This document shows, one piece after another, positions 2,428 to 22,555 of a stretch of 64,000 nucleotides of DNA (the first letter of the stretch is position 1; every line of letters starts with the position of its first letter). Source of the DNA: a virus. The notes beneath the pieces are model-generated. The model was not told where the DNA came from. It saw nothing but the letters and a program-made list of their open reading frames with translations, and made no database searches. The stretch is taken from positions 91,523 to 155,522 of the IMG/VR virus record IMGVR_UViG_3300045988_125846; one strand, given 5' to 3'. The translations under genes and the position numbers were made by a program.

Positions 2428-3096
2428 CTATTTGTTGTTTTTCTTAGATTTTTTTGTGTACTTGTCAGTTAATACGCTAGGAATATCGGCAGGTTTAATA
2501 GTTCCTGCTTCTACCATCCACTCAAAGCCTACACCGTAAAGGTTTTTAAGCGCATTTGTTACGTCATACTTGAGAGCCTTTGTACCGTTAGACTTTACAA
2601 CGGTTTTCGTGTCAATCTTCTTACCGATTGATTCCAGAACGGCAGTTTCAAATGTTGTACCTGCTACATCAAGTTTGTAAACTTTGTAGAAGTTCTCTAC
2701 TGCTGTCTTGACATCTTCTAAGCACTTAGCATCTTTCATAGCTTTGCGGAATTTTTTGTCGTGTTCGTTGTATTCAAAAGAAGCTTGTTCTTTGAGCAAC
2801 TTATCCCACTCAACCTTTAAGCCTTCATTGATAGTTACATAATTAGTACGCATCCGGTTCAGATCCTCAACTGTAATGTCAAGATTTCCCGAACCTTTTT
2901 CGAGCATGTCGTCAATGGCTGCAATACTGTTATTATTAGCATCAATTTTTGAGCCATAGATTGTATTCAGTTCGGCTTTTTTGATGATGCAACGGAAAAA
3001 TTCAGAAGTCCGTGTTGATAATGTGCGTGCTGACTGGAAAAAGTCAACTTTAGTGTTGTTTGTTGCTACTGTTGTGTTAGTTGTTGTTTTACTCAT
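2428..3096 (-). CDS. hypothetical protein (222 aa), first gene of the leftward operon
   Basis: Long ORF with RBS GGAGAAAGAG upstream. No recognisable motif. Confidence 0.6.
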   Translation of the reverse strand: MSKTTTNTTVATNNTKVDFFQSARTLSTRTSEFFRCIIKKAELNTIYGSKIDANNNSIAAIDDMLEKGSGNLDITVEDLNRMRTNYVTINEGLKVEWDKLLKEQASFEYNEHDKKFRKAMKDAKCLEDVKTAVENFYKVYKLDVAGTTFETAVLESIGKKIDTKTVVKSNGTKALKYDVTNALKNLYGVGFEWMVEAGTIKPADIPSVLTDKYTKKSKKNNK

Positions 3097-3640
3097 AATG
3101 TTCTCTTTCTCCGACTTGACGCAATCGGTGCTATGTATTTTTATTGTGTACGTTGTTATCCTCAGCTTTTAACAGACTTGGAACTGTCAATCTTTGCAGA
3201 CTGGTAGCTTTATAACGTCCTCCTCACCTTACCTAGTGCACCTCACACCGTTGTACTTTCGTACGCCCCTAAAGAGTATTCATGCTTAGTCTTGAGCATT
3301 CATGACCTCTAACCCCTTTAGGATATAGATACAGACCTCAATATTCAATTCCTACGAGTTGGGGAACGTAGGCACTCTATTTTCACCCCGAATTGCAATG
3401 CAAATAGTTAGAATACAAGCCGTAACTTATTTTCGTAGTGTGGTTTGTGCCGTAACACTTGCCACCTATCCGCAAAGGCATTTTTAAAGATATGCAAACT
3501 TTTTGTGGAATTTTTGCATGAAATATGCTAAGATATGTAATGCTATGGTGTAGCGTTTCATGCGTTCCACTATGTAAGGGTGTAAGGTGTGATAGACTTT
3601 GCACCCTATTTATAGGTTGCTACCCTATATATAAGCTATA
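3097..3640 (-). promoter_or_regulatory. long ORF-free, GC-richer 5' leader or ncRNA downstream of the three promoters
   Basis: No credible ORF. Minus-strand GAAA-capped hairpin GTAC-GAAA-GTAC (3253-3264), 6-bp hairpin CCTACG/CGTAGG (3351-3372), palindrome ATGCAAA/TTTGCAT (3492-3519). Confidence 0.35.
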
Positions 3641-6657: not shown

Positions 6658-7911
6658 TTGGAATTTAATTGTAAAGTTAATATTGTAGATGCCATTATGG
6701 GTGCTGGTAAAACTCAGTCAATAATGAATTATATTAATCAATCAGATGAAGATGAGAAATTTTTGGTAATAACACCTTTCCTTGATGAAATAACCAGATA
6801 TAGGACGTATTGTAATGGTAAGAATTTTAAAGCACCTACATTTTTAAAAGATGAAAAGGATGATAGGGGCAGTAAACTTAGAGATCTTAAGAGATTGATC
6901 GGCAATGGTAATAACATAGTGTCAACCCATGCTCTATTTCAAAAATTCGACAATGAACTGATTGATTTATGTAGAGCGCAAAATTATACGCTTATAATGG
7001 ATGAAGTTGCAAATGTTATAGAAGAATATGATATTACCAAACAGGATTTTGAGATATTAAAAAATACATATGTTGAAATCAATCCTGATACAAAGCAGCT
7101 TACATGGAAAGATGAATATTCTGATTATCATGGTAAATTTGATAATGAAAAGCGTTTATGTGAGTTAGGAAGTCTTGTATGTTATGGAGACAACTTAATG
7201 GTATGGTTATTTCCTATAGAGACATTTAATTCATTTAGGAATATCTATATTCTTACATATTATTTTGATATGCAAATGCAGAAATATTACTATGACTATT
7301 ATGGAGTTCAATATACATACTGGTCTGTTCAAGGCGATTCTATGGAAAATTATCATCTTATTCCATATAGCTCAAATATCAGATATACATCTTATGATTA
7401 TAGTAAGCTAATTCATATTTGTGAGAATGAAAAATTAAATATGATTGGCGATAGAGATTCTGACTTGTCTTTTTCTTGGTATTCTCGAAATAAAAACAAC
7501 GCATCAATGAAGATATTAAAAAAGAATATATATAATTTCTTCCATAATGTGCGAAATACAAATTCAAATGACTACATATGGACTACATTTAAAGAATACC
7601 AACAAATATTAAAAGGGAAAGGATATACAAAAGGATATCTATCATGTAATTGCAGAGCCACCAATGAATATCGAGACAGAACTTCTGTAGCATATCTTAT
7701 AAATCGTTACCTCAATCCATTTATTAAAAATTTTTTCACAACAAATCATATTAGTGTAGACGAGAATGGTTATGCACTTTCTGAAATGCTTCAGTTTATA
7801 TGGCGATCAGCTATTCGTGATGGCAAGGAAATTTGGGTATATATCCCAAGTATACGAATGCGAAATCTTCTAAAAAAATGGATCAAAGACAATTCACCAC
7901 AAAATTCCTAA
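6658..7911 (+). CDS. P-loop NTPase, SF2 helicase-like
   Basis: TTG start after AAAGGAG. Walker A AIMGAGKTQS and Walker B-like LIMDEV. Confidence 0.5.
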   Translation: MEFNCKVNIVDAIMGAGKTQSIMNYINQSDEDEKFLVITPFLDEITRYRTYCNGKNFKAPTFLKDEKDDRGSKLRDLKRLIGNGNNIVSTHALFQKFDNELIDLCRAQNYTLIMDEVANVIEEYDITKQDFEILKNTYVEINPDTKQLTWKDEYSDYHGKFDNEKRLCELGSLVCYGDNLMVWLFPIETFNSFRNIYILTYYFDMQMQKYYYDYYGVQYTYWSVQGDSMENYHLIPYSSNIRYTSYDYSKLIHICENEKLNMIGDRDSDLSFSWYSRNKNNASMKILKKNIYNFFHNVRNTNSNDYIWTTFKEYQQILKGKGYTKGYLSCNCRATNEYRDRTSVAYLINRYLNPFIKNFFTTNHISVDENGYALSEMLQFIWRSAIRDGKEIWVYIPSIRMRNLLKKWIKDNSPQNS

Positions 7912-8007
7912 TAAATAGAGAATAAACATATGTAACCAATTAACACAGCACTTAAAAGGAGCTGATTACAATGAATAAAATTTTAAAAATCAAAGGAGAA
8001 CAATTAA

Positions 8008-8226
8008 ATGAACAAAACAGTAACAATCGAATCAAAGAATCATAAATACGCAAATACATACGGTGGGCTTATCTGTCAGTCCGATTTTTGTACTGACTAT
8101 GAAGGAAGTAAAAATATTGCAGATAAAATCGCTTCTGCTTGGAGATTTGATAGATCATGTAACATGCAAATGAAAAATAGTATTAGAAGTTATAAAGAAA
8201 AGGTTACAAATAATAAAAATAACTGA
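8008..8226 (+). CDS. hypothetical protein (72 aa)
   Basis: RBS AAAGGAGAA upstream. Confidence 0.45.
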   Translation: MNKTVTIESKNHKYANTYGGLICQSDFCTDYEGSKNIADKIASAWRFDRSCNMQMKNSIRSYKEKVTNNKNN

Positions 8227-8937: not shown

Positions 8938-9402
8938 ATGGCTGGTACAGTTGAAAAAGAAACCAATTTTTATCTATATAAGATTATAGATAAAGACGAA
9001 TTAGTGTATATTGGGAAGTCAACTAATATTGATAATAGAATTGAAGTTCATAGCGTTATAAATAATCATTTTGATAAAAACATGTATTTTACATGTAGAG
9101 GAGAAAGTATATCAAATTTAGTTATTTATATTGCCAACGTTCCTGACGAGTATCTTTTGTCAATATATGAAATAACATTAATTTCAAAATATAAACCACT
9201 ATATAATAACAGCGACAAGTATGATACAAAACATCTATTAAAGTTACCACAAATAAATTGGTTTCCATATGTATCAAAAGAAAATTGTGAAGTAATTTAT
9301 AACATGAAAACAGGCAAGATTATTGATCCTTGTTTAATAGATACACCATTAAAAAGATGGAATATTTTAAAAGATTTACATATGGAGGAAATTAAATGTT
9401 AG
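8938..9402 (+). CDS. GIY-YIG domain protein
   Basis: FYLYKIIDKDELVYIGKSTNIDNRIEVH carries GIY...YIG...R..E-type motifs. Confidence 0.6.
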   Translation: MAGTVEKETNFYLYKIIDKDELVYIGKSTNIDNRIEVHSVINNHFDKNMYFTCRGESISNLVIYIANVPDEYLLSIYEITLISKYKPLYNNSDKYDTKHLLKLPQINWFPYVSKENCEVIYNMKTGKIIDPCLIDTPLKRWNILKDLHMEEIKC

Positions 9403-12164
9403 ATACACAGATTAATATGTATTCGGTTGATACAGGTCATTTTTATAGCAATCATGAAAAATACTTACATCAAATGAACTGTAAATACAGACGTGAAAGA
9501 AATTATGTAAATAATATGCTTCCAAAATTAGAAGAAGAACTCGTAACGCAGGGTTACAACAAAGATGATTTTTCTGATTGGAAACGTTGTACCGTTGAAG
9601 ACTACTATGAACAAGAAAATGATTCTGTAAAAGAATATATGAAGTGGTGTTTGATTATAAAACACAAAAGAGAGAAAGCAAATTTATCAAAAGAAAAACT
9701 TCTGAATCTTTTATCAAATAAGACAATTCAAAAAGAGAATCTATCGAATAAAATCGAGTATTGCAAATCGCATAATATTCCATATAATAAAAAAATCGAA
9801 TTAAGAGAGTTAAGAAAAGATGAACTAAATGATAATAATATCATTTCAGTATTTGAATCTTCCCTTACACGTATTATTGGCATTAAAAAAGACGAACTAA
9901 CAGACGCTCTTATTGTAGTTCAAGTTTATTATTTTGATGTATTTAAAGATTTGTCTTTTTATGGGTTTATGTATAATGGCGAAAAATACAGATACTTTAC
10001 ATCTTCTGCTGGTCAAATCCGTAAGAAAAAAGCTGTTTTTATTAAAGAATCAGTATGGAATGAAGTTGAAAAGACAGTCATGTGTGGTCTTACTATTGAT
10101 AAAATAAACTCAAAGGGTGGAAACAATGTTAATAAACATCTTGCGTATATGGCATTGGCGAATTCAGCTACTGACCAGTGGAATGATTTTGATATAGACA
10201 GATGTATTGTTGTAGATGATTTTGAGACGAATGTGCCAGGAGAATTTGATTTTATTGATGAGACTGATTATTCGATTGAGAGAAAAACTGGTACTGTTCC
10301 GATTACTCATACTGATGGAGCTGGCATGATATTACCAAGCGTAATGACGAAAAACACAATGTTTCGTGCTCCATGGGTGAAAGGTTTATTGGGAGTATTT
10401 GATTTTAAAAAGTTTATTGAAGTAAATAATTGCTCTCCTATTATCACAGATATTTATGGGCAAGATCATGATGTAATTGCTGAAGATATTAGAATAATTT
10501 TCACAAAAAGTCAATTTAAGATGTATAAGTTTTATGATTCATGGGATGAGTATAAGACATATTTTAAGCAATATCATTGTCAAGCTGGTAGATGTAACAC
10601 TGAGGAAGATAGAATTAAAAATGCAAAAATCAATTATCAGATGTTGCAAACTCTCACAAATGTAACAGATGAAGAGATTGATTTACTTACAAAGAAGTCT
10701 GTGGAGCGAATCACAAATATCTGTAACTCTGTTGATACTATGAAAGATATTCTTGGAATTACACCTTATAATACAAATATGACAGCTTTTCAAAAAGCAG
10801 TAAAGATTTATCCTGCTCTACTCAACGATACATATGCAAAAGACGTGATCCGTGAAGTAAAGAATAGCCTTTTAAAAAAATATAGAAGTGGAAAACTTGA
10901 AATAAATGGAAAATATACTTTCTTACTTCCAGATTATTATGCAGCTTGTGAGTATTGGTTTGGACACATTGATACGCCTAAAGGATTGTTGGCAGACAAA
11001 GAGGTATTTTGTTGGTTATTTAAACAATATGATAAACTTGACTGTCTAAGAAGTCCTCACCTCTACAAAGAACATGCTATTCGTTTTAATGTAGCGAATA
11101 AAGTATATGAGGAACGAGTTGATAAAATCAGAGAATGGTTTACAACAAATGCGGTATATACAAGTACATATGACTTGATTAGTAAAATTCTTCAGTTTGA
11201 TGTTGATGGAGATAAATCATTGGTAGTTGCTGATCCTGATTTTGTAAGAATCGCAGAACGTAATATGAATGGTGTTGTACCACTCTATTATAATATGCGT
11301 AAAGCAGAGCCAAGAATTTTGAATAATCAAAGTATTTATGAAGGATTAAATGCGGCATTTACAGGTGGAAACATCGGTGTTTATAGCAACAATATTTCAA
11401 AAATCTGGAATAATGATGTATTTATCAATGGAACAGATGAGGAAAAAGAACATGCAACTAATTGTGTCAAGCGTTTATGCTGTCAGAATAATTTTGTTAT
11501 TGATTACGCTAAGACATTATACAAGCCTGAGTTTCCAGAAACAATTGGTGAAGAAATTAAAGAGTTTACCAATCAGAAACTTCCTGCATTCTTTGAATAC
11601 GCTAAAGACAAGGAAAAATCACAAGTTGATGATAGAAATGATAGTTTTGTAAATAAACTCTACTATCGTATTCCTAATAAATCAATTAATACAAGAGGTA
11701 TGAAACTTGGAGAATTAAAATATAAGGATATGATGAAAAATCCTGATATTGTATGTTCTAAAGAGGTATCTGATTTGTATGATGAATTGAACAAGAAGTA
11801 CCGCTATATGGTCAATATGAAGGATGAATATATTGATAATCTTCATTATGTGGCTTGCTCTATTAGAAATCAATTTGCAGAGCTTGGATATTCGGAAGAA
11901 ATGATTGCTGATATGCTCATTCAATATTTATATGGTGGGGAAAAACGTGCGAAACAATTGTTTTGGTTTTGTTATGGTCAGTATATTGTTACTAATTTAG
12001 AGAATAATCCAAATATCAAAAAGAAAAAGACTAAAATGATTCAATGTATTGATTGTGGTAAATGGATTGAAGTTGATTTTATGTCCAAGTCATGTAGATG
12101 TGAACTTTGTCAGCATGAATATCGAAAACAGCTTGATCGAGAAAGAAAAAGAAAAAACAAGTAA
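9396..12164 (+). CDS. single-subunit two-barrel RNA polymerase, YonO / cellular RdRP-like
   Basis: FDVDGDKSLVVADPD (DxDGD, nt 11199-11213) and an upstream YFTSSAGQIRKKK (nt 10002-10022) resembling the RdRP 'FSxSQLR' barrel motif. C-terminal Zn ribbon CIDCGK...CRCELC. 922 aa. Confidence 0.6.
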   Translation: MLDTQINMYSVDTGHFYSNHEKYLHQMNCKYRRERNYVNNMLPKLEEELVTQGYNKDDFSDWKRCTVEDYYEQENDSVKEYMKWCLIIKHKREKANLSKEKLLNLLSNKTIQKENLSNKIEYCKSHNIPYNKKIELRELRKDELNDNNIISVFESSLTRIIGIKKDELTDALIVVQVYYFDVFKDLSFYGFMYNGEKYRYFTSSAGQIRKKKAVFIKESVWNEVEKTVMCGLTIDKINSKGGNNVNKHLAYMALANSATDQWNDFDIDRCIVVDDFETNVPGEFDFIDETDYSIERKTGTVPITHTDGAGMILPSVMTKNTMFRAPWVKGLLGVFDFKKFIEVNNCSPIITDIYGQDHDVIAEDIRIIFTKSQFKMYKFYDSWDEYKTYFKQYHCQAGRCNTEEDRIKNAKINYQMLQTLTNVTDEEIDLLTKKSVERITNICNSVDTMKDILGITPYNTNMTAFQKAVKIYPALLNDTYAKDVIREVKNSLLKKYRSGKLEINGKYTFLLPDYYAACEYWFGHIDTPKGLLADKEVFCWLFKQYDKLDCLRSPHLYKEHAIRFNVANKVYEERVDKIREWFTTNAVYTSTYDLISKILQFDVDGDKSLVVADPDFVRIAERNMNGVVPLYYNMRKAEPRILNNQSIYEGLNAAFTGGNIGVYSNNISKIWNNDVFINGTDEEKEHATNCVKRLCCQNNFVIDYAKTLYKPEFPETIGEEIKEFTNQKLPAFFEYAKDKEKSQVDDRNDSFVNKLYYRIPNKSINTRGMKLGELKYKDMMKNPDIVCSKEVSDLYDELNKKYRYMVNMKDEYIDNLHYVACSIRNQFAELGYSEEMIADMLIQYLYGGEKRAKQLFWFCYGQYIVTNLENNPNIKKKKTKMIQCIDCGKWIEVDFMSKSCRCELCQHEYRKQLDRERKRKNK

Positions 12165-12365: not shown

Positions 12366-12662
12366 TTGACAATTACACAGGAAAAGATTATTAAAGAAAT
12401 CGCAGAGAAGGAAGATATAAATGTAGCGACAGTCCGTAAAGTATTCAAAAGGGCAGAGAAATGTATATTCGCCTACCTATCTTCTACTACTCCCACTGAT
12501 AATACAGTGGTAAAAATTTTAGATGGATTAAGTTTGGAATGTAAATATATTCCAGAAAAAGAAATCCATACATATGATAATATCCAATGTGAGGCAAAAA
12601 TTTGGACGAAACCAAAAATAACTCGTTATTACAATAGAAAGCTAAATGGATATTTTGATTAA
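12366..12662 (+). CDS. HU/IHF-like DNA-binding protein (divergent)
   Basis: TTG start after GGGAGG. The N-terminus (KIIKEIAEKEDINVATVRKVFKRAEKCI...) parallels the HU helix-turn-helix arm layout. Confidence 0.4.
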   Translation: MTITQEKIIKEIAEKEDINVATVRKVFKRAEKCIFAYLSSTTPTDNTVVKILDGLSLECKYIPEKEIHTYDNIQCEAKIWTKPKITRYYNRKLNGYFD

Positions 12663-13068
12663 AACAATGAAATCAGCTTTTCTTGGCTGATAAAACAGAG
12701 AATATATAATTGTCGGAAGACATTAGAACAACGTCCTATACGGACGCAATATAACACAAATTAAATTCAGAACAGTGATTTAGATCTCGTATCATACTGA
12801 GGCAATAAAGTCCATAGAGACAATGTATGTGGTGCAAGCAGCCATAACTGCTAACTTTAATGTTAGGTTGGTAAACCTACGGATAATCAGCTTATTTGGT
12901 GAACTGATAAAATCTAAGAGATTCCATCGCTACTAATTCATTGGCGGTTCTGAACAATTCTAAAGATCATTTCTAAGATTGGTACATATTCATATTGTAC
13001 TCCTCTTCTTATATGTATCGGTGACTGTGCTACAATTCTTGCAGTATGGTTGCCGATTATTCTTTTAA
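12663..13068 (+). ncRNA. ORF-free structured segment upstream of tRNA-Asn (possible 5' part of a large ncRNA)
   Basis: No ORF. Hairpins at 12837-52 (AGCAG/CTGCT), 12864-79 (TAGGTT-GGTA-AACCTA) and 12886-908 (ATCAG/CTGAT). Confidence 0.3.
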
Positions 13069-13141
13069 TCTCTTATAGCTCAGTTGGTAGAGCATCGCAC
13101 TGTTAATGCGAAAGTCGTAAGTTCGAGTCTTACTGGGAGAG
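13069..13141 (+). tRNA. tRNA-Asn (GUU)
   Basis: Hand-folded cloverleaf: acceptor TCTCTTA/TGGGAGA, D arm GCTC..GAGC, anticodon loop CTGTTAA, T arm GTAAG-TTCGAGT-CTTAC. Confidence 0.85.
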
Positions 13142-13976
13142 CTTTTCTACTTTTGTAGGACTGGTTGGTTTCGGATCAGGAGATGTTAAATCTCAAAAAT
13201 AAGCATGGCGACATGTATAAAGTGGTTCTTATCGTATTATAAGGCTGCGACTGTGAAATACAGTTTAACGGAAAACACATAAAATCTACGCCCAACCTTC
13301 TATTCAAGGACAACTGTTGGCGAATATGGTTGATTGGTGGGTGTCTTGAAATAGGCACTGTAGTAACACAGAAATGTGGGTATGATTTGTGTACTATTGG
13401 TGGGAATACCGCAAGTATAACCGCTGGTAGGATTTTGGTAATATCTCTTAAGTTGAAAAACAGGGATGGAATCAAAAGGCAAGGAGATCGCAATTCGAGC
13501 AGGATGGTGATGATTGGGCTGTACTCAAAAGGTACGGATGATCAAATGTACACCTCATCGTCCATAATAAGTACATGCTTTTGAAAGAAATCAAATTATT
13601 TTAGGTAAATAATATTTAAAAGAAAATTACAAAACAGCAAAAGTGTGTGCGACCGCAAAGAGAAAAACAACTTATTCACCTGTAATATGGTGACATATAG
13701 CACTCGCAAGGTGTTATATGAGAAAGTACAAGTACGTGCAATTCTAATAGGCTGCAACCTATGAATCTCGCAAGGAAGAATGTGCCGAAAGAAAATCTAT
13801 AATACTTTGTGGTAAGAGTTTGCCGGTTATGTCAAAACTGGTGTTGTTGCTAACTACAAGTTAATCGCTTGTGTGATAAACTGTGTCCAACCACAGTAGA
13901 TGTTAGTGTATTGAGTCAAATATCTCAGCTCATATTAAGTAATGATCTCATACTTCGGTATGGGATTTTTTATTTA
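13142..13976 (+). ncRNA. candidate large structured ncRNA (about 0.83 kb, GOLLD/ROOL-like context)
   Basis: No credible ORF and visibly GC-richer. Many hairpins (13292-320, 13521-35, 13666-83, 13881-96), GCAA and UUCG loops on the plus strand. Ends in the terminator at 13947-75 and is flanked by tRNAs. Confidence 0.4.
13947..13975 (+). terminator. intrinsic terminator (UUCG-capped)
   Basis: 7-bp stem CTCATAC/GTATGGG with a TTCG loop, then ATTTTTTATTT. Confidence 0.65.
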
Positions 13977-14051
13977 GAGTGTGTAGCTCAGTTTGGCAGA
14001 GCACTCGACTTTTAATCGAGTTGTCGATGGGTTCAAATCCCTCCACGCTCA
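13977..14051 (+). tRNA. tRNA-Lys (UUU)
   Basis: Acceptor GAGTGTG/CACGCTC, D arm GCTC..GAGC, anticodon arm CTCGA-CTTTTAA-TCGAG. The T stem is imperfect (ATGGG/CCCTC). Confidence 0.65.
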
Positions 14052-14305
14052 CTCTCTTCTGCTATTCGGCAGGAAATAAATCAAGAAAGAAGTGAAAATT
14101 ATTTTATTAATTAACAAAACAGAAGCCTTTGCAATGAGGAAACTTGTTGGAAATGAGAATGTAAAAAAGACTTATAGTGGTCATTCTAAATACTATCTGG
14201 TTGAGTCTTATCAGAATTTAAAGGCTTTAAGTAATTATAGAAAAAGTAAAATCGTTGGATAGAGACGAAATCTAAAATGAAAGGTGGTCGGAAACCATCG
14301 GTACA

Positions 14306-15535
14306 ATGAAATTTTATGATACTAATGCTATTTTAAAACTACAGGACAAAATTTTTGAGGAAGATTTTATCATAAGTTCTGTAACATTACAAGAATTAGA
14401 GCATATTAAAGTATCTCGAAACAAAGATGATCATGTAAAGTATGAAGCACGAAAAGTTTTGCACCTACTTGATGATAATTCGGATAAATATGAAGTTGTT
14501 GTATATGACAACGCAATTGAAAATTACATACTTGAGAAAAATATGGAAATAACACCTGATACTAAAATAGTTGGTAGTTGTGCATTTGTAAATACAATGA
14601 AGGATGTTATTTTTATTACAGATGATATTGCTTGTAAAATGATTGCAAGTAAGATATTTAATCTTACTGTAAAAGGTGTAAATGATGAGCCAGTAGATGA
14701 TTATAGTGGATTTATTGAGAAGACACTTTCAGAGTCAGAAATGGCTTATTTTTATGAACATTTGCAGGAAAATACCTATGGATTACTTGAAAATGAGTAT
14801 CTTATCTTAAAAGATTCTAATACTCATGCCGTTGATACTCTCGTTTGGCGAGAAGGAATGTACCAAAATATTAAATTCCCTAATATTAAATCAGATTATT
14901 TTGGCGTAGTTAAACCTCTTAATGGAGATATTTATCAGCAAATGGCTTTAAATAGTTTCTCTAATAATCAAATTACTATGATTAAAGGTTCTGCTGGTAC
15001 AGGAAAATCATATCTTGCGGTTGGATATATGATGTGGTTACTCGAAAAACACAAGATTGATAAAATTGTGATTTTTGCCAACCCAACTCCTACTATGAAT
15101 TCGGCTAAGATTGGATTTCTGCCAGGAACACAGCTAGATAAGCTCGTTGATTCAAGTATTGGTAATATGCTTGCTGGAAAACTTGGAGACAAGTTTATGA
15201 TTGAACAGCTTGTGTCAAGAAACAAGCTTTCTATATTACCGATGTGTGATATTCGAGGATTTGATACAAGTGGTTTAAATTGTGCGGTCTATATTACAGA
15301 GGCGCAGAATTTAGATATATCACTCATGAAACTTGCATTACAGAGAATTGGAGAAGATTCAATCTGTATTATAGATGGCGACTATAACACTCAGGTCGAT
15401 CTCAATCAATATGCAGGCAATAATAATGGTATGAGAAGAATGTCTGAGGTATTCAGAGGACATGATTTCTATGGAGAAATTGAATTACAGAACATCTACA
15501 GAAGTAAGATTGCTGCTGTAGCTGATGACATGTAA
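14306..15535 (+). CDS. phoH: PIN domain + PhoH-like ATPase
   Basis: YDTNAIL... PIN-like N-terminus; Walker A GSAGTGKSYLAVG; PhoH-like C-terminal half (ITEAQNL..., IIDGDYNTQVDL). Confidence 0.8.
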   Translation: MKFYDTNAILKLQDKIFEEDFIISSVTLQELEHIKVSRNKDDHVKYEARKVLHLLDDNSDKYEVVVYDNAIENYILEKNMEITPDTKIVGSCAFVNTMKDVIFITDDIACKMIASKIFNLTVKGVNDEPVDDYSGFIEKTLSESEMAYFYEHLQENTYGLLENEYLILKDSNTHAVDTLVWREGMYQNIKFPNIKSDYFGVVKPLNGDIYQQMALNSFSNNQITMIKGSAGTGKSYLAVGYMMWLLEKHKIDKIVIFANPTPTMNSAKIGFLPGTQLDKLVDSSIGNMLAGKLGDKFMIEQLVSRNKLSILPMCDIRGFDTSGLNCAVYITEAQNLDISLMKLALQRIGEDSICIIDGDYNTQVDLNQYAGNNNGMRRMSEVFRGHDFYGEIELQNIYRSKIAAVADDM

Positions 15536-18687: not shown

Positions 18688-18771
18688 GGGTAATTAAACA
18701 ACTACGGAGATTGGCGAAACTGTAAATTTCGTGGCTTTTGCATCGAGTGGGTTCGACTCCCTCATTACCCA
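18688..18771 (+). tRNA. tRNA-Tyr (GUA), long variable arm
   Basis: Acceptor GGGTAAT/ATTACCC, anticodon arm CGAAA-CTGTAAA-TTTCG, long variable arm, T arm GTGGG-TTCGACT-CCCTC (one mismatch). Confidence 0.7.
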
Positions 18772-18936
18772 CTTTTGATGTTTCTGTGAATGGAAACAGG
18801 GAATAGATATATGTGCTCATGATTAGTGTCATAGCTGATTGTGGGATTTATGATGAATATATAAAAATGCGACAAGAAGCGGTTAGTTAATGATACTACT
18901 GCTTCTTTTTTGTTATATGAAAGGAAGTGAGATTTA

Positions 18937-19971
18937 ATGGGTAGAAAAATACAGCATAACAATATTGTTACTGATGAGTTATTGGCTCAGTGCAATAAAG
19001 AGAATATAAAGTTAGGAAATGACTTTTTGGATTATCTTCGTTCAGTTGATAGATCCCCAAATACAATCAATGCGTATAGGCGTGACCTTTTTATTTTTTG
19101 GGTTTATCTGCTTCAGCATTGTGACAACAAATTCTTTATTGATTTATCTAAGAGGGATATTGCTCATTATCAGAGTTTTTGCCTTACTGAATATAAATGG
19201 TCGCCAGCTAGAATGCGTAGAGTAAAATCTACTCTTTCTTCTCTTTCAAATTATGTGGAAGCTATATTGGACGATGAGTATGAAAATTTTAAACCGATTA
19301 TACGCAAGATTGAAAATCCTGCAAATGAGAAAGTATTTACTAAAACTGTATTATCCGATGAACAAGTACAGGGTATGCTTGATTTTTGGGTTGAAAAAGG
19401 TAAATATGACAAGGCTTGTATTTTAGCATTAGCTGCATTTAGTGGCAGACGTAAGAGTGAGTTACCACGATTTAAAGTATCTTATTTCGATGATGAAAAT
19501 ATTATATACGGTTCTTTATATAAAACACCTGAAAAGATTCAAACAAAGGGAAGAGGCTCTAGGGGCAAAATGTTGACGGTATATACACTTGCAAAACCGT
19601 TTAAGCCATATTTTGATTTGTGGATGAATTATAGAAAAGAACACGGAATTGAATCAGAATGGTTATTTCCAAAGAAAGTAAATGGAGAATATATAGATGA
19701 ACCTATGGATTCAAGCACTCTTGACAGTTGGGCTGATACATTTAGTAAGCATTTAGGAGAAGACTTTTATTTTCACAGTCTTCGTCACTTCTTTACAACT
19801 TCTTGTTCTCGAAGCGGTCTTCCTGATGATGTAATTCAAATGCTAGTTGGTTGGAGTTCGCTAGATATGGTATCAGTGTACAAAGATATTGACGCTGATG
19901 AGCAATTTGCAAAATATTTTGCTGATGGAGAAATAAAACAAGTAGAACAAAAATCACTTTCTGATTTGTAG
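18937..19971 (+). CDS. tyrosine recombinase / phage integrase
   Basis: SAM-like N-terminal domain; catalytic-domain motifs ...AFSGRRKSEL..., HSLRHFFTT, LVGWSSLDMVSVY. Confidence 0.85.
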   Translation: MGRKIQHNNIVTDELLAQCNKENIKLGNDFLDYLRSVDRSPNTINAYRRDLFIFWVYLLQHCDNKFFIDLSKRDIAHYQSFCLTEYKWSPARMRRVKSTLSSLSNYVEAILDDEYENFKPIIRKIENPANEKVFTKTVLSDEQVQGMLDFWVEKGKYDKACILALAAFSGRRKSELPRFKVSYFDDENIIYGSLYKTPEKIQTKGRGSRGKMLTVYTLAKPFKPYFDLWMNYRKEHGIESEWLFPKKVNGEYIDEPMDSSTLDSWADTFSKHLGEDFYFHSLRHFFTTSCSRSGLPDDVIQMLVGWSSLDMVSVYKDIDADEQFAKYFADGEIKQVEQKSLSDL

Positions 19972-20227
19972 ACAATCCCGATGAAACTTTTGTCTAACAT
20001 TATTTTTCCACTATCAGCCATAGAAATGTTCGTGCTTCTCTGCGTTAATGAGAACCTTAATTGTCGGATGAGAGACAATAAACCTTATCAACTGGTCTTT
20101 GCTCCGAAGACTGAAAATATGTGGAGAATAATCAATAAGCATGAATGGATTGCGAAAGTTTTCTAATTTAAAACTGCATGTGTACAGTGCAATATCAGCT
20201 AGTTAGTGCTTTATGCTGATTATACTT

Positions 20228-20299
20228 GGCTCTATAGTATAAAGGTAATTATATCCGACTGTCTATCAGAAGATTTGGGTTCGATTCCCAATAGAGTCG
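20228..20299 (+). tRNA. tRNA-Asp (GUC)
   Basis: Acceptor GGCTCTA/TAGAGTC, T arm TTGGG-TTCGATT-CCCAA, anticodon loop CTGTCTA. The anticodon stem has one C.A mismatch. Confidence 0.65.
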
Positions 20300-20301
20300 C
20301 T

Positions 20302-20375
20302 GTGTTAGTAGCTTAGTAGGTTAAAGCGTCAGATTGTGGTTCTGAATATCGTGGGTTCAAATCCCACCTAACACC
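20302..20375 (+). tRNA. tRNA-His (GUG)
   Basis: Acceptor GTGTTAG/CTAACAC, D arm GCTT..AAGC, anticodon arm TCAGA-TTGTGGT-TCTGA, T arm GTGGG-TTCAAAT-CCCAC. Confidence 0.85.
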
Positions 20376-20424
20376 TAATGATTAAAAGGAAAACGAAAAA
20401 ATAAAAGAAAGGAGTGTACATACA

Positions 20425-20718
20425 ATGGCAAGTAGATTATCTATTGAAAATGATAGATTAAAAGTCGGTCAAGTAAAACGAGTAACATCGAATAATGGAA
20501 ATAAAATTGATTCTATTACTCTTCTGCTTAATGAATCTGTGGAAGTTTTATTTGCACCAAATGGAAATACATTGGAATTTACGGTATCAAATCCAAATAT
20601 TGATATGAGCAATTTGGACTGTACTATTGATAAAGAGACTTTAAGGGACTTAGTAATCAGTTTCAAAGATGCTTATAATCAGATAATTTCAAACGAAAGT
20701 GAGGGGACAAATTCATGA
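20425..20718 (+). CDS. hypothetical protein (97 aa)
   Basis: RBS AAAGGAG upstream; overlaps the next gene (ATGA). Confidence 0.5.
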   Translation: MASRLSIENDRLKVGQVKRVTSNNGNKIDSITLLLNESVEVLFAPNGNTLEFTVSNPNIDMSNLDCTIDKETLRDLVISFKDAYNQIISNESEGTNS

Positions 20719-21188
20719 AATTAGATCAGAAATTTAATGTAGAAAATGACATCGCAAGTGTAGATATTACTGTTACAAGTCTTGGCACTGCTGATTTGAC
20801 AAGTGAGCAGGAAAAAGAATTACTTGCAAATTACAATAAGTATATCGAGTATAGTAAAATACAGTTCAAGGGAAATATCAAGCTTAATAATGGTGTTCCA
20901 GAAGTAACAACAGATCCAAAAGACGATTCTACTATTGTTGAATTGGAGATTACGGATGTAACAAATGAGAGAAAACTTGTCAATGAAGATTTAGCATTTC
21001 ATTTTGAAAGAGATGTAACAAAATATCCTGATACAGTATTAAATACTGTTCTTGATAAGAAGGAACTGTATGCACAGGCTCAGTGTGTATTATTTGCTAC
21101 AAAAGTTAAGGAAGCTGTTACTGAGAAGTTAGCTGAAATTCGTGCGTTGAATAATACTTTCGAAGGAACTACAGAATATACTCTGTAA
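20715..21188 (+). CDS. hypothetical protein (157 aa)
   Basis: Translationally coupled to the previous ORF. Confidence 0.5.
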   Translation: MKLDQKFNVENDIASVDITVTSLGTADLTSEQEKELLANYNKYIEYSKIQFKGNIKLNNGVPEVTTDPKDDSTIVELEITDVTNERKLVNEDLAFHFERDVTKYPDTVLNTVLDKKELYAQAQCVLFATKVKEAVTEKLAEIRALNNTFEGTTEYTL

Positions 21189-21222
21189 AAAATAATGGGT
21201 GGTACTCTTCCACCCTAAATAT

Positions 21223-21293
21223 GGGGCATTAGTCAAAAGGTAAGACAATGGATTTTCATTCCATGAGTATCGGTTCGAGTCCGTTATGCCCTA
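21223..21293 (+). tRNA. tRNA-Glu (UUC)
   Basis: Acceptor GGGGCAT/ATGCCCT, anticodon arm ATGGA-TTTTCAT-TCCAT, T loop TTCGAGT. Confidence 0.75.
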
Positions 21294-21484
21294 TTTTTTA
21301 TGCGGTAAGCCTGATGTGAAAGCTTATCTTTTGGATGCATACGAAATTTAGTGTGTAAGTTCAACACTTACTACCGCCCTATGCCCTTTGCGGTCTTCGG
21401 ACTGGTACTGTTGTAACAATAGGATACGTCCTATGCAGTTTAGATGAAAGCTCGCCATTCGAGGATGGAATGAGAAAGGCAATA

Positions 21485-22153
21485 TCATTTTGGAATTTTA
21501 TCAAATATCAATTTTCTTAACTTGAGTTGATATTTATCATAATGAGATTCCCAATCAAATTCTTTTGTATTATCTAAGATATCTTGTTTGAGATTTTTGA
21601 GTTGTTGTTTATCTGTTTTATGCTTCATGATAATCGGTAATTCGTTAATCTCGTTCTCATAAAATAAAATGGTTGCAATAATACAATTCTTATTGGCAAA
21701 CAACGCAACTAATTCTTGTTTTGTACCCAATACAATTTCAGCCATACCTACTACTCTATTCGTAGTCATAGCTTTACGAAGAAGTTCATATTCGATTTCT
21801 GACTCCATTTCAGGAATTAAATAATATGATTTATCTATGAGTAGGTCTGATATTTCTTTTGATTTACAGAAATATTTTATTGAAAGTGTTCTATCTTTGT
21901 TTGATGTAATTGATTCTATATCATATTGTTCCAAAATAACATACTTATCTTCTGCATATTTATATCCTTTTACAATATCTTCATTGTGGATTTCTTTATT
22001 ACAAGATGGACAAAATTTGATATAACGCACTCTTTCTTTGGAGTCTTTGCAGAGTTGATTAAGTTCTATAGAACTGTTGTGTGATGTTTTTAACATTTTT
22101 ACGGGAATATATAAATCTTTGAATTGAATTGCAGTTTTATATGAAGCGTTCAT
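21485..22153 (-). CDS. ku: Ku-like DNA end-binding protein
   Basis: The N-terminus (YKTAIQFKDLYIPVKMLKTS...IELNQLCKDSKERVRYIKFCPSCNKEI..EDIVKGYKY..DKYVIL) parallels bacterial Ku (AISFGLVNIPVKLY...RIRYKRVC..CGKEV..EDIVKGYEY). Confidence 0.8.
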   Translation of the reverse strand: MNASYKTAIQFKDLYIPVKMLKTSHNSSIELNQLCKDSKERVRYIKFCPSCNKEIHNEDIVKGYKYAEDKYVILEQYDIESITSNKDRTLSIKYFCKSKEISDLLIDKSYYLIPEMESEIEYELLRKAMTTNRVVGMAEIVLGTKQELVALFANKNCIIATILFYENEINELPIIMKHKTDKQQLKNLKQDILDNTKEFDWESHYDKYQLKLRKLIFDKIPK

Positions 22154-22211
22154 GATAGTTTCTCCTTAGATACTTTTGGTTTAGTATATGGAGAAATTTG
22201 AAAAATATTAT

Positions 22212-22285
22212 CTGGATATAGGACAATTTGGTAGTCCGCTAGTTTTGGGAACTAGACGTTGTAGGTTCGAGTCCTACTATCCAGA
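22212..22285 (+). tRNA. tRNA-Pro (UGG)
   Basis: Acceptor CTGGATA/TATCCAG, D arm GGAC..GTCC, anticodon arm CTAGT-TTTGGGA-ACTAG, T arm GTAGG-TTCGAGT-CCTAC. Confidence 0.85.
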
Positions 22286-22378
22286 CTACTGCTCTATACA
22301 GTTATAACCGGTTTGGCGACTGATTGGTAAATATTGGAAGAAAGAGTCATTTCCTTTGGAGTGGCACTTTTATTATAT

Positions 22379-22451
22379 ACACCTTTAGCTTAATTGGTAG
22401 AGCAACGATCTCCAAAATCGTCAGGTCTATGTTCGAATCGTAGAAGGTGTG
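22379..22451 (+). tRNA. tRNA-Trp (CCA)
   Basis: Acceptor ACACCTT/AAGGTGT, anticodon arm ACGAT-CTCCAAA-ATCGT, T arm CTATG-TTCGAAT-CGTAG. Confidence 0.85.
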
Positions 22452-22555
22452 CTAAGTGAAGTGAACTAAATTGTCAAAACATTCAAAATATTTGTACAAA
22501 TGGTTTTATATACAAAAAATAGAGAGTATTGTCAACTCTCCATTTAATTATACTA

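Follow-up and report, generated by a model that had tools for sequence, protein, structure and literature searches.

This study concerns a large RNA that is encoded between two tRNA genes of a viral genome fragment. The fragment comprises 64,000 nucleotides (nt), positions 91,523 to 155,522 of the IMG/VR record IMGVR_UViG_3300045988_125846; this whole stretch is called the window below, and coordinates count from its first letter. An inspection of the letters without database searches (the sequence-only reading) had proposed that 12663-14305 is free of credible open reading frames (ORFs) and holds a giant structured non-coding RNA of the GOLLD or ROOL kind, on the plus strand between phage tRNAs. 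We show here that such an RNA is present and that it is specifically GOLLD, as judged by the Rfam model RF02032 and by covariation. We are highly confident that 13143-13976 (plus strand) encodes a GOLLD RNA some 830 nt long and that its carrier is a phage or prophage of gut Lachnospiraceae, similar to SPbeta. It is a diverged, new lineage of this known family, lying below the Rfam cut-off and having a reduced 5' domain.

The locus between the tRNA genes

The locus consists of the following features:

13069-13142, plus strand: tRNA-Asn (GTT), called by ARAGORN and by Rfam (70.3 bits), without an encoded CCA; its 3' end adjoins the GOLLD 5' end
13143-13501, plus strand: GOLLD 5' domain, 359 nt, reduced, about 13 helices; 41 compensatory pairs in helices 2-16
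13502-13931, plus strand: GOLLD 3' domain, Rfam RF02032, 100.1 bits; 35 pairs with compensatory changes
13946-13975, plus strand: terminator-like UUCG-capped hairpin with U-tract, found by scan, adjoining tRNA-Lys; 4 of 8 pairs with compensatory changes
13977-14052, plus strand: tRNA-Lys (TTT), called by ARAGORN and by Rfam (59.8 bits)

Both tRNAs that the sequence-only reading had placed in the region are thus called by two programs, both on the plus strand, and the exact space between them is 13143-13976 (834 nt, plus strand). Much of what had been noticed about this space holds. The stretch is GC-richer, with a GC fraction of 0.39-0.40 over 13000-13600 and 13750-14050 compared to about 0.29-0.32 in the flanks. 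The 9-nt sequence CTCGCAAGG, seen twice, is present at 13703-13711 and 13767-13775, and the copies are two GOLLD loops. The UUCG-capped terminator reported at the 3' end was found at 13946-13975; the scan gives four terminator-like sites in the region, where 0.9 are expected. The inter-tRNA ORFs are all short and overlap on both strands (13176-13493 and 13300-13482 on the minus strand, 13330-13584 on the plus strand), and stops and frameshifts break them in homologues, in line with the earlier judgement that these three are not credible.

A conserved and strand-specific fold

The inter-tRNA element is a conserved, strand-specific and heavily base-paired RNA with two domains. In an alignment of 15 non-redundant copies of the window type (alignment A1, 70-98% pairwise identity), RNAalifold predicts 197 pairs, of which 81 show compensatory double changes, and 98.3% of the cells pair. 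Shuffled controls gave 45.1 +/- 3.2 double-change pairs (0 of 500 shuffles reached 81), and sliding the partners by 1-3 columns left 6-13. Covariation, by which the sequence-only reading had proposed to check its candidate, therefore stands above both shuffled and slid controls. The double changes occur in both halves, 41 pairs in 13143-13501 and 35 in 13502-13931, with 4 more in the terminator hairpin and 1 in a rejected helix. The predicted plus-strand preference is also seen in the minimum free energy, which is -230.3 kcal/mol for the plus strand (z -6.7 versus shuffled sequence) and -156.4 kcal/mol for the minus strand (z -0.33). Of the hairpins drawn by eye, those at 13521-35 and 13881-96 recur as covariation-supported helices at 13519-37 and 13880-97; those at 13292-320 and 13666-83 have to be redrawn, the supported pairing being 13289-97 with 13328-39 and, for the second, 13676-93. 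Two helices from RNAalifold were discounted: one that closes the linker of the 3' half (13572-83 with 13638-49) has zero compensatory changes, and one of 4 base pairs between 13157-60 and the U-tract of the terminator has a single one, with 89.7% of the cells paired.

The ORFs in the window copy, of 84 amino acids on the plus strand and of 105, 60 and 53 amino acids on the minus strand, could suggest decayed protein-coding genes or unannotated small genes. However, every one of them is broken by stops or frameshifts in homologues, the substitutions are compensatory in helices and show no third-codon-position bias, and the element has a significant RNA-family match. Because the covariation beats its controls and the ORFs are broken, we regard decayed genes, as well as chance hairpins, as excluded, and the probability that we leave to a coding origin is next to negligible.

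Identity of the 3' half

The Rfam model for GOLLD, RF02032, represents only the conserved 3' half of the RNA. Run in E-value mode, it matches the window over its full length (model positions 1-416 of 416) with 100.1 bits and an E-value between 6e-27 (901 nt searched) and 4.3e-25 (whole window), and the helices that RNAalifold draws in 13502-13931 agree with the Rfam consensus line. Of the Rfam families that had been suggested for comparison, GOLLD alone is thus matched; ROOL, HEARO, raiA and introns gave no match in the window. For ROOL (RF03087) this holds at the gathering cut-off in the window and at E up to 10 in 12400-14500. A gathering-mode Rfam scan of the window returned tRNAs only, and GOLLD surfaced only in E-value mode. 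The gathering cut-off for GOLLD, 150 bits, is an annotation threshold and not a biological feature, and since the score lies under this curated value a routine scan overlooks the window GOLLD.

The 3' domain shows the family hallmarks in family order (RF02032 alignment), beginning with a long first hairpin whose loop is UCAAAAG, followed by CCAUAAU, the A/U-rich linker and AGCAAAAGU, and continuing with a long-range helix, three hairpins with CGCAA/GCAA loops and a terminal UCUCAGC loop. The elements located in it are:

13525-31, plus strand: UCAAAAG loop
13564-13637, plus strand: A/U-rich variable linker J13/15, poorly conserved, with indels (A1 columns 495-600)
13636-44, plus strand: junction AGCAAAAGU
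13652-60 with 13805-13, plus strand: long-range helix, from the RF02032 alignment
13703-11 and 13767-75, plus strand: loop CUCGCAAGG
13752-57, plus strand: loop CUGCAA
13923-29, plus strand: UCUCAGC loop

The linker 13564-13637 is the counterpart of the unstructured linker in the Rfam model and corresponds to the linker that is disordered in the GOLLD RNA env-38 (PMC12286853). The dinucleotides of J13/15 and L20, which form bridge B7, are complementary in the window (GC:GC) and covary between lineages, being GG:CC in L131, L141, L126 and L122 and GA:UC in env-38.

One variable slot in related phages

IMG/VR was searched with the neighbouring PIN-PhoH protein and with a 922-amino-acid RdRP-like protein encoded nearby, which yielded 112 loci. 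A GOLLD 3' domain is found in 56 of the 112, and an element of the window type in about 40 loci with 72-99% identity. The slot in question is bordered on one side by an ORF of 98 amino acids that neighbours the RNA polymerase gene, and on the other by the gene for PIN-PhoH. At every locus tRNA genes bound the element within 0-2 nt, and the identity of these tRNAs varies (Asn or Met on the 5' side; Lys, Thr, Ile, Pro, Arg or Asn on the 3' side). GOLLDs that score above the Rfam cut-off and share no blastn similarity with the window element occupy this same slot at L069 (193 bits), L076 (172 bits), L056 (168 bits) and L006 (159 bits); blastn sorts them into three further lineages, L056 and L006 being one. 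The UUCG hairpin also terminates the canonical L056/L006 lineage. The L069 and L076 lineages are without a hairpin-plus-U-tract before the next tRNA, L069 having a short hairpin with no U-tract. Upstream of the GOLLD at L056 and L006 (approximately 8068-8140 and 2688-2760) we noted a tRNA-like stretch with GGTTCGATTCC; it is uncalled by ARAGORN and may be a degenerate or unusual tRNA.

In L085 (IMGVR_UViG_3300006217_000006), the polymerase of which is 74% identical, the same slot holds a ROOL RNA at 7318-7932 (286.7 bits, cut-off 99.1). This ROOL lies between the 98-amino-acid ORF and a conserved leader hairpin (7959-8006) that is followed by tRNA-Lys (8006-8080). Neither GOLLD nor ROOL is present in L043-L048 and L065 (for example L043:7267-7680), with polymerases 82-97% identical, and the large RNA is therefore dispensable in this clade. 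Searches by nhmmer with the L085 ROOL revealed no other ROOL in the 112 viral or in 44 genomic loci. Phages with polymerases that are 95-98% identical bear differing GOLLD lineages or none, and it is the 74% relative that bears ROOL. Shared contexts of GOLLD and ROOL have long been noted (PMC5737381); a limited literature search gave no description of them replacing one another at a single slot within a phage clade, and nothing relevant on GOLLD in Lachnospiraceae.

The 5' half and alternative explanations

The 5' half has to be judged on other grounds, since neither RF02032 nor the GOLLD alignment supplied by Kretsch et al. extends beyond the 3' domain. It contains an ordered core motif:

13197-13249, plus strand: 5' core motif, consisting of AAAUAA, a GNRA hairpin (loop GCGA at 13208-11), AUAAAGUGG, a hairpin and CUGCG

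Used as a pattern, this motif has a single match in the window, with 0.00 expected by chance. The same ordered motif is present in env-38 (sequence from the supplement of PMC12286853) and in more than 119 IMG/VR contigs. Of 13 unrelated contigs with the motif, taken from other metagenome samples, 8 have a GOLLD 3' domain (231-322 bits) on the same strand, 318-340 nt further downstream; the corresponding distance in the window is 253 nt. A joint alignment of the 5' domains of the window type, 7 canonical GOLLDs and env-38 is colinear, with the anchors in this order: first hairpin and core motif; CCUU..AGG(A/G)YAAC; a GNRA hairpin; CUUAA, a GAAA-loop hairpin and ARG; and the last hairpin before the 3' domain. 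By approximate residue mapping, the window has the motifs for bridges B1, B2, the B3 loop, B6, B7, B8 and B9. The mapping is approximate because the bridge residues of env-38 were matched to sequence text from the PDF, from which 816 nt and not 833 were recovered, 17 nt short. Among unrelated phage contigs found via the 5' motif, L119 (8589-8940), L132 (5794-6173, minus strand) and L125 (2717-3112) have a transfer-messenger RNA gene 0.7-2.6 kb from the GOLLD, beside tRNA arrays.

Several observations weigh against the assignment to GOLLD or against its simplest form. With 100.1 bits against a cut-off of 150, the RNA is no annotated member by the operational rule of Rfam. The 5' domain is missing an approximately 22-nt hairpin and a segment of some 65-78 nt, together about 90 nt of canonical sequence, and by the same approximate mapping this missing part comprises both partners of the env-38 bridges B4 and B5. 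The covariance model R1, built from the 5' core of the window type, scores near background on same-slot GOLLDs, with its matches at the expected positions (18.7 bits at L056 8161-8243, 15.5 bits at L076 7587-7669). A Smith-Waterman comparison of the 5' half with env-38 gave a score of 23 that does not differ significantly from shuffles (20 +/- 2.5). A terminator-like hairpin right before tRNA-Lys is awkward for a simple co-transcription with this tRNA.

The sequence-only reading had considered it equally possible that the RNA belongs to a new class, that is, a large structured RNA which is GOLLD-like only in size and context. The sub-threshold Rfam score and the non-significant alignment to env-38 would fit such a class. 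So would the blastn result: among 50,697 deposited phage genomes (INPHARED), the complete region was matched at the two tRNAs only, from which it follows that there is no close cultured relative. However, a covariance-model match over the full length at E ~1e-25, with hallmark loops and junctions in the correct order, is hard to reconcile with a separate origin, the 5' core motif is common to GOLLDs above the cut-off, canonical GOLLDs fill the same slot in relatives, and the J13/15:L20 dinucleotides are compatible. The model match, the shared 5' core and the same-slot GOLLDs lead us to reject a new class, which we consider very improbable.

A GOLLD origin would also be compatible with a chimera or relic, in which a GOLLD-derived 3' domain is joined to a degenerate 5' half and the whole drifts without function as a mere spacer in a tRNA operon. 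The 5' domain is indeed about 60-70 nt shorter than the canonical one, with both partners of two env-38 bridges missing, some close relatives (L043-48) have no large RNA in the slot, so that this RNA is dispensable, and the 3' score is below that of other lineages. On the other hand, compensatory changes are dense in both halves (41 and 35 pairs) across about 40 loci of 72-99% identity, and the loop and junction motifs are invariant. Such a combination indicates purifying selection on structure and not drift, and a decaying relic is in our view highly unlikely.

Upstream leader and downstream reading frame

The features that surround the tRNA-bounded element are:

12683-12710, plus strand: sigma-70-like promoter candidate, TTGGCT, 16-nt spacer, TATAAT; 10 of 12 consensus matches
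12711-13011, plus strand: leader, outside GOLLD; mosaic and variable over 12712-12950, conserved from near 12952
13017-13057, plus strand: long hairpin rich in G-U pairs, about 41 nt, always shortly before the slot's first tRNA, whichever cassette comes next
14092-14262, plus strand: small ORF between tRNA-Lys and the PIN-PhoH gene, 56 amino acids from GTG or 42 from ATG at 14134

The sequence-only reading had counted the 0.4 kb upstream of tRNA-Asn as part of the large RNA. Instead, this is a separate leader with a promoter-like site and a hairpin. Of 12 relatives, 11 have kept a block of 32 nt at the promoter candidate, including some with a different sequence after it. The middle of the leader exists as three alternative segments among relatives (blastn and alignment), and 12711-13011 has no conserved ORF. 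The final stretch of about 115 nt before the tRNA is conserved and ends in the hairpin 13017-13057, for which 98.5% of the cells are paired, compared to at most 58% when slid (alignment A4, model R2), and which occurs once in the window (78.7 bits). The leader hairpin also precedes the tRNA in L085, L065 and L233, which have ROOL or no large RNA. In L043-48 it adjoins tRNA-Lys directly and in L065 it is about 7 nt away. Because the hairpin directly precedes tRNA-Lys in relatives without a large RNA, tRNA-Asn and GOLLD behave as an insertable cassette. The hairpin may be a processing site, a leader stabiliser or a phage promoter element.

The small ORF 14092-14262 has no Pfam or PHROG match. 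Thirteen other distinct homologues (blastn, 87-97% nucleotide identity) preserve its frame, with mostly synonymous or conservative changes, and the 1.6-kb region is therefore not ORF-free, as had been claimed for 12663-14305.

Phage and host

A phage or prophage context beside tRNA genes had been assumed, and this is borne out by tRNAs that adjoin both ends of the RNA and by TerL and a polymerase homologue in the window. TerL is 39-42% identical to that of SPbeta-family Bacillus phages. The 922-amino-acid protein (9396-12164, plus strand) matches the Pfam family RdRP (PF05183) and shares about 44% identity with a protein from an SPbeta-family phage, which we take to be the single-subunit RNA polymerase YonO. 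By these two similarities the phage is placed close to the SPbeta-like ones. Relatives of the polymerase in genomic sequences (54-80% identity) come almost all from Lachnospiraceae, including isolates with megabase scaffolds, and are likely prophages. In the closest one, from a metagenome-assembled genome of Lachnospira, the same slot contains a GOLLD 3' domain. A gut bacterium of the Lachnospiraceae is the probable host, and culturable hosts likely exist, since isolates of this family carry related prophages.

Two further observations concern the remainder of the window. A second, loose tRNA cluster at 18688-22452 (plus strand; Tyr, Asp, His, Glu, Pro, Trp) is interleaved with ORFs and gave no further large-RNA match (Rfam, E-value mode). 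The twister-P1 ribozyme model RF03160 matches 3155-3216 (minus strand) over its full length, 1-68, with 48.3 bits, below its cut-off of 67.2 (E 1.1e-7, whole window). There, P1 can form (GUUAU/AUAAC), and the match lies 59 nt upstream of a minus-strand ORF, 2428-3096. By eye, GUUCCAAGUCUG and AAAAGCUGAGG in this segment resemble twister core motifs.

Proposed biogenesis and assembly

We propose that the GOLLD RNA is co-transcribed with the flanking tRNAs, probably from the site at 12683-12710 via the structured leader. The GOLLD 5' end would be generated by RNase Z, cleaving at 13142 behind the discriminator base of tRNA-Asn, which has no encoded CCA, and the 3' end would stem from the hairpin with U-tract (13946-75) and/or from RNase P cleavage at 13977. 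That the L069 and L076 lineages are without a hairpin-plus-U-tract supports co-transcription and a release of GOLLD by tRNA processing. In the window, this hairpin may terminate transcription in part or protect the 3' end.

From its homology with GOLLDs of solved structure, the RNA is expected to self-assemble into a closed cage of identical subunits with no protein involved. Its contacts would be made by loops that the window has kept, namely the GNRA loop of the 5' domain, the ring motif AGG..AAC, UCAAAAG, the J13/15 GC with the L20 GC, and two GC-containing CGCAA-type loops. The env-38 GOLLD forms a 14-mer in cryo-electron microscopy (Kretsch et al., 2025, PMC12286853), and the 3' domain of the Streptococcus agalactiae GOLLD forms 8- to 12-mers. 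Since the segments for the cap bridges B4 and B5 are missing, the subunit number or the cap geometry may differ in the window lineage. Of the possible functions, a late-infection role connected with tRNA or translation seems to fit the tRNA linkage best.

A more far-reaching idea is that one slot of an SPbeta-like Lachnospiraceae phage clade is filled by any of four or more GOLLD lineages or by ROOL, or lacks a large RNA, and is always joined to tRNAs, with GOLLD and ROOL being interchangeable and the reduced-cap lineage having another subunit number. We put this forward as tentative, with somewhat less than even confidence. If GOLLD and ROOL were interchangeable, two unrelated cage-forming RNAs would share one accessory, tRNA-linked task, and near-isogenic natural variants would exist for testing their equivalence.

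Comparison with known systems

GOLLD RNAs are among the largest non-coding RNAs of bacteria and phages, and their cage structures were solved in 2025. The window locus leaves the concept of GOLLD unchanged. It does indicate that GOLLD diversity in gut viromes is under-annotated, because a lineage of about 40 loci escapes the Rfam cut-off. A GOLLD with a naturally reduced 5' domain is useful for asking which contacts set the size of the cage, and related phages with differing GOLLDs, ROOL or empty slots are a natural comparative set for function.

Compared to GOLLD as described (RF02032; Weinberg et al., 2009; env-38 in PMC12286853), the window RNA likewise has two domains, is phage-borne and adjoins tRNAs, and it is of similar size (834 nt, env-38 833 nt). 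The 3' domains share the same helices, UCAAAAG, CCAUAAU, AGCAAAAGU, CUCGCAAGG, the GCAA loops, UCUCAGC and the variable linker, and the 5' cores share AAAUAA, the GNRA hairpin, AUAAAGUGG, the following hairpin and CUGCG. One difference from canonical GOLLDs is that the 3' domain of the window is AT-rich with shorter helices (e.g. 13676-93) and reaches 100 bits, and that the 5' domain has about 359 nt instead of about 420 nt. The terminator-like UUCG hairpin at the end of the window copy also sets it apart from GOLLDs in general. ROOL (RF03087) is similarly a large, ornate, phage-associated RNA that adjoins tRNAs and forms RNA-only cages, but its sequence and fold are unrelated to the window RNA; moreover, the conserved leader hairpin follows the ROOL in L085 but precedes GOLLD. 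Finally, the GOLLD in a tRNA array of Mycobacterium (Morgado et al., 2020, as cited in PMC12990946) is embedded in tRNA genes as well, which, as far as that citing account goes, implies co-transcription and tRNA-type processing. There, according to the same account, a tRNA can sit inside the J13/15 linker, whereas the window linker 13564-13637 is tRNA-free and the tRNAs flank the RNA.

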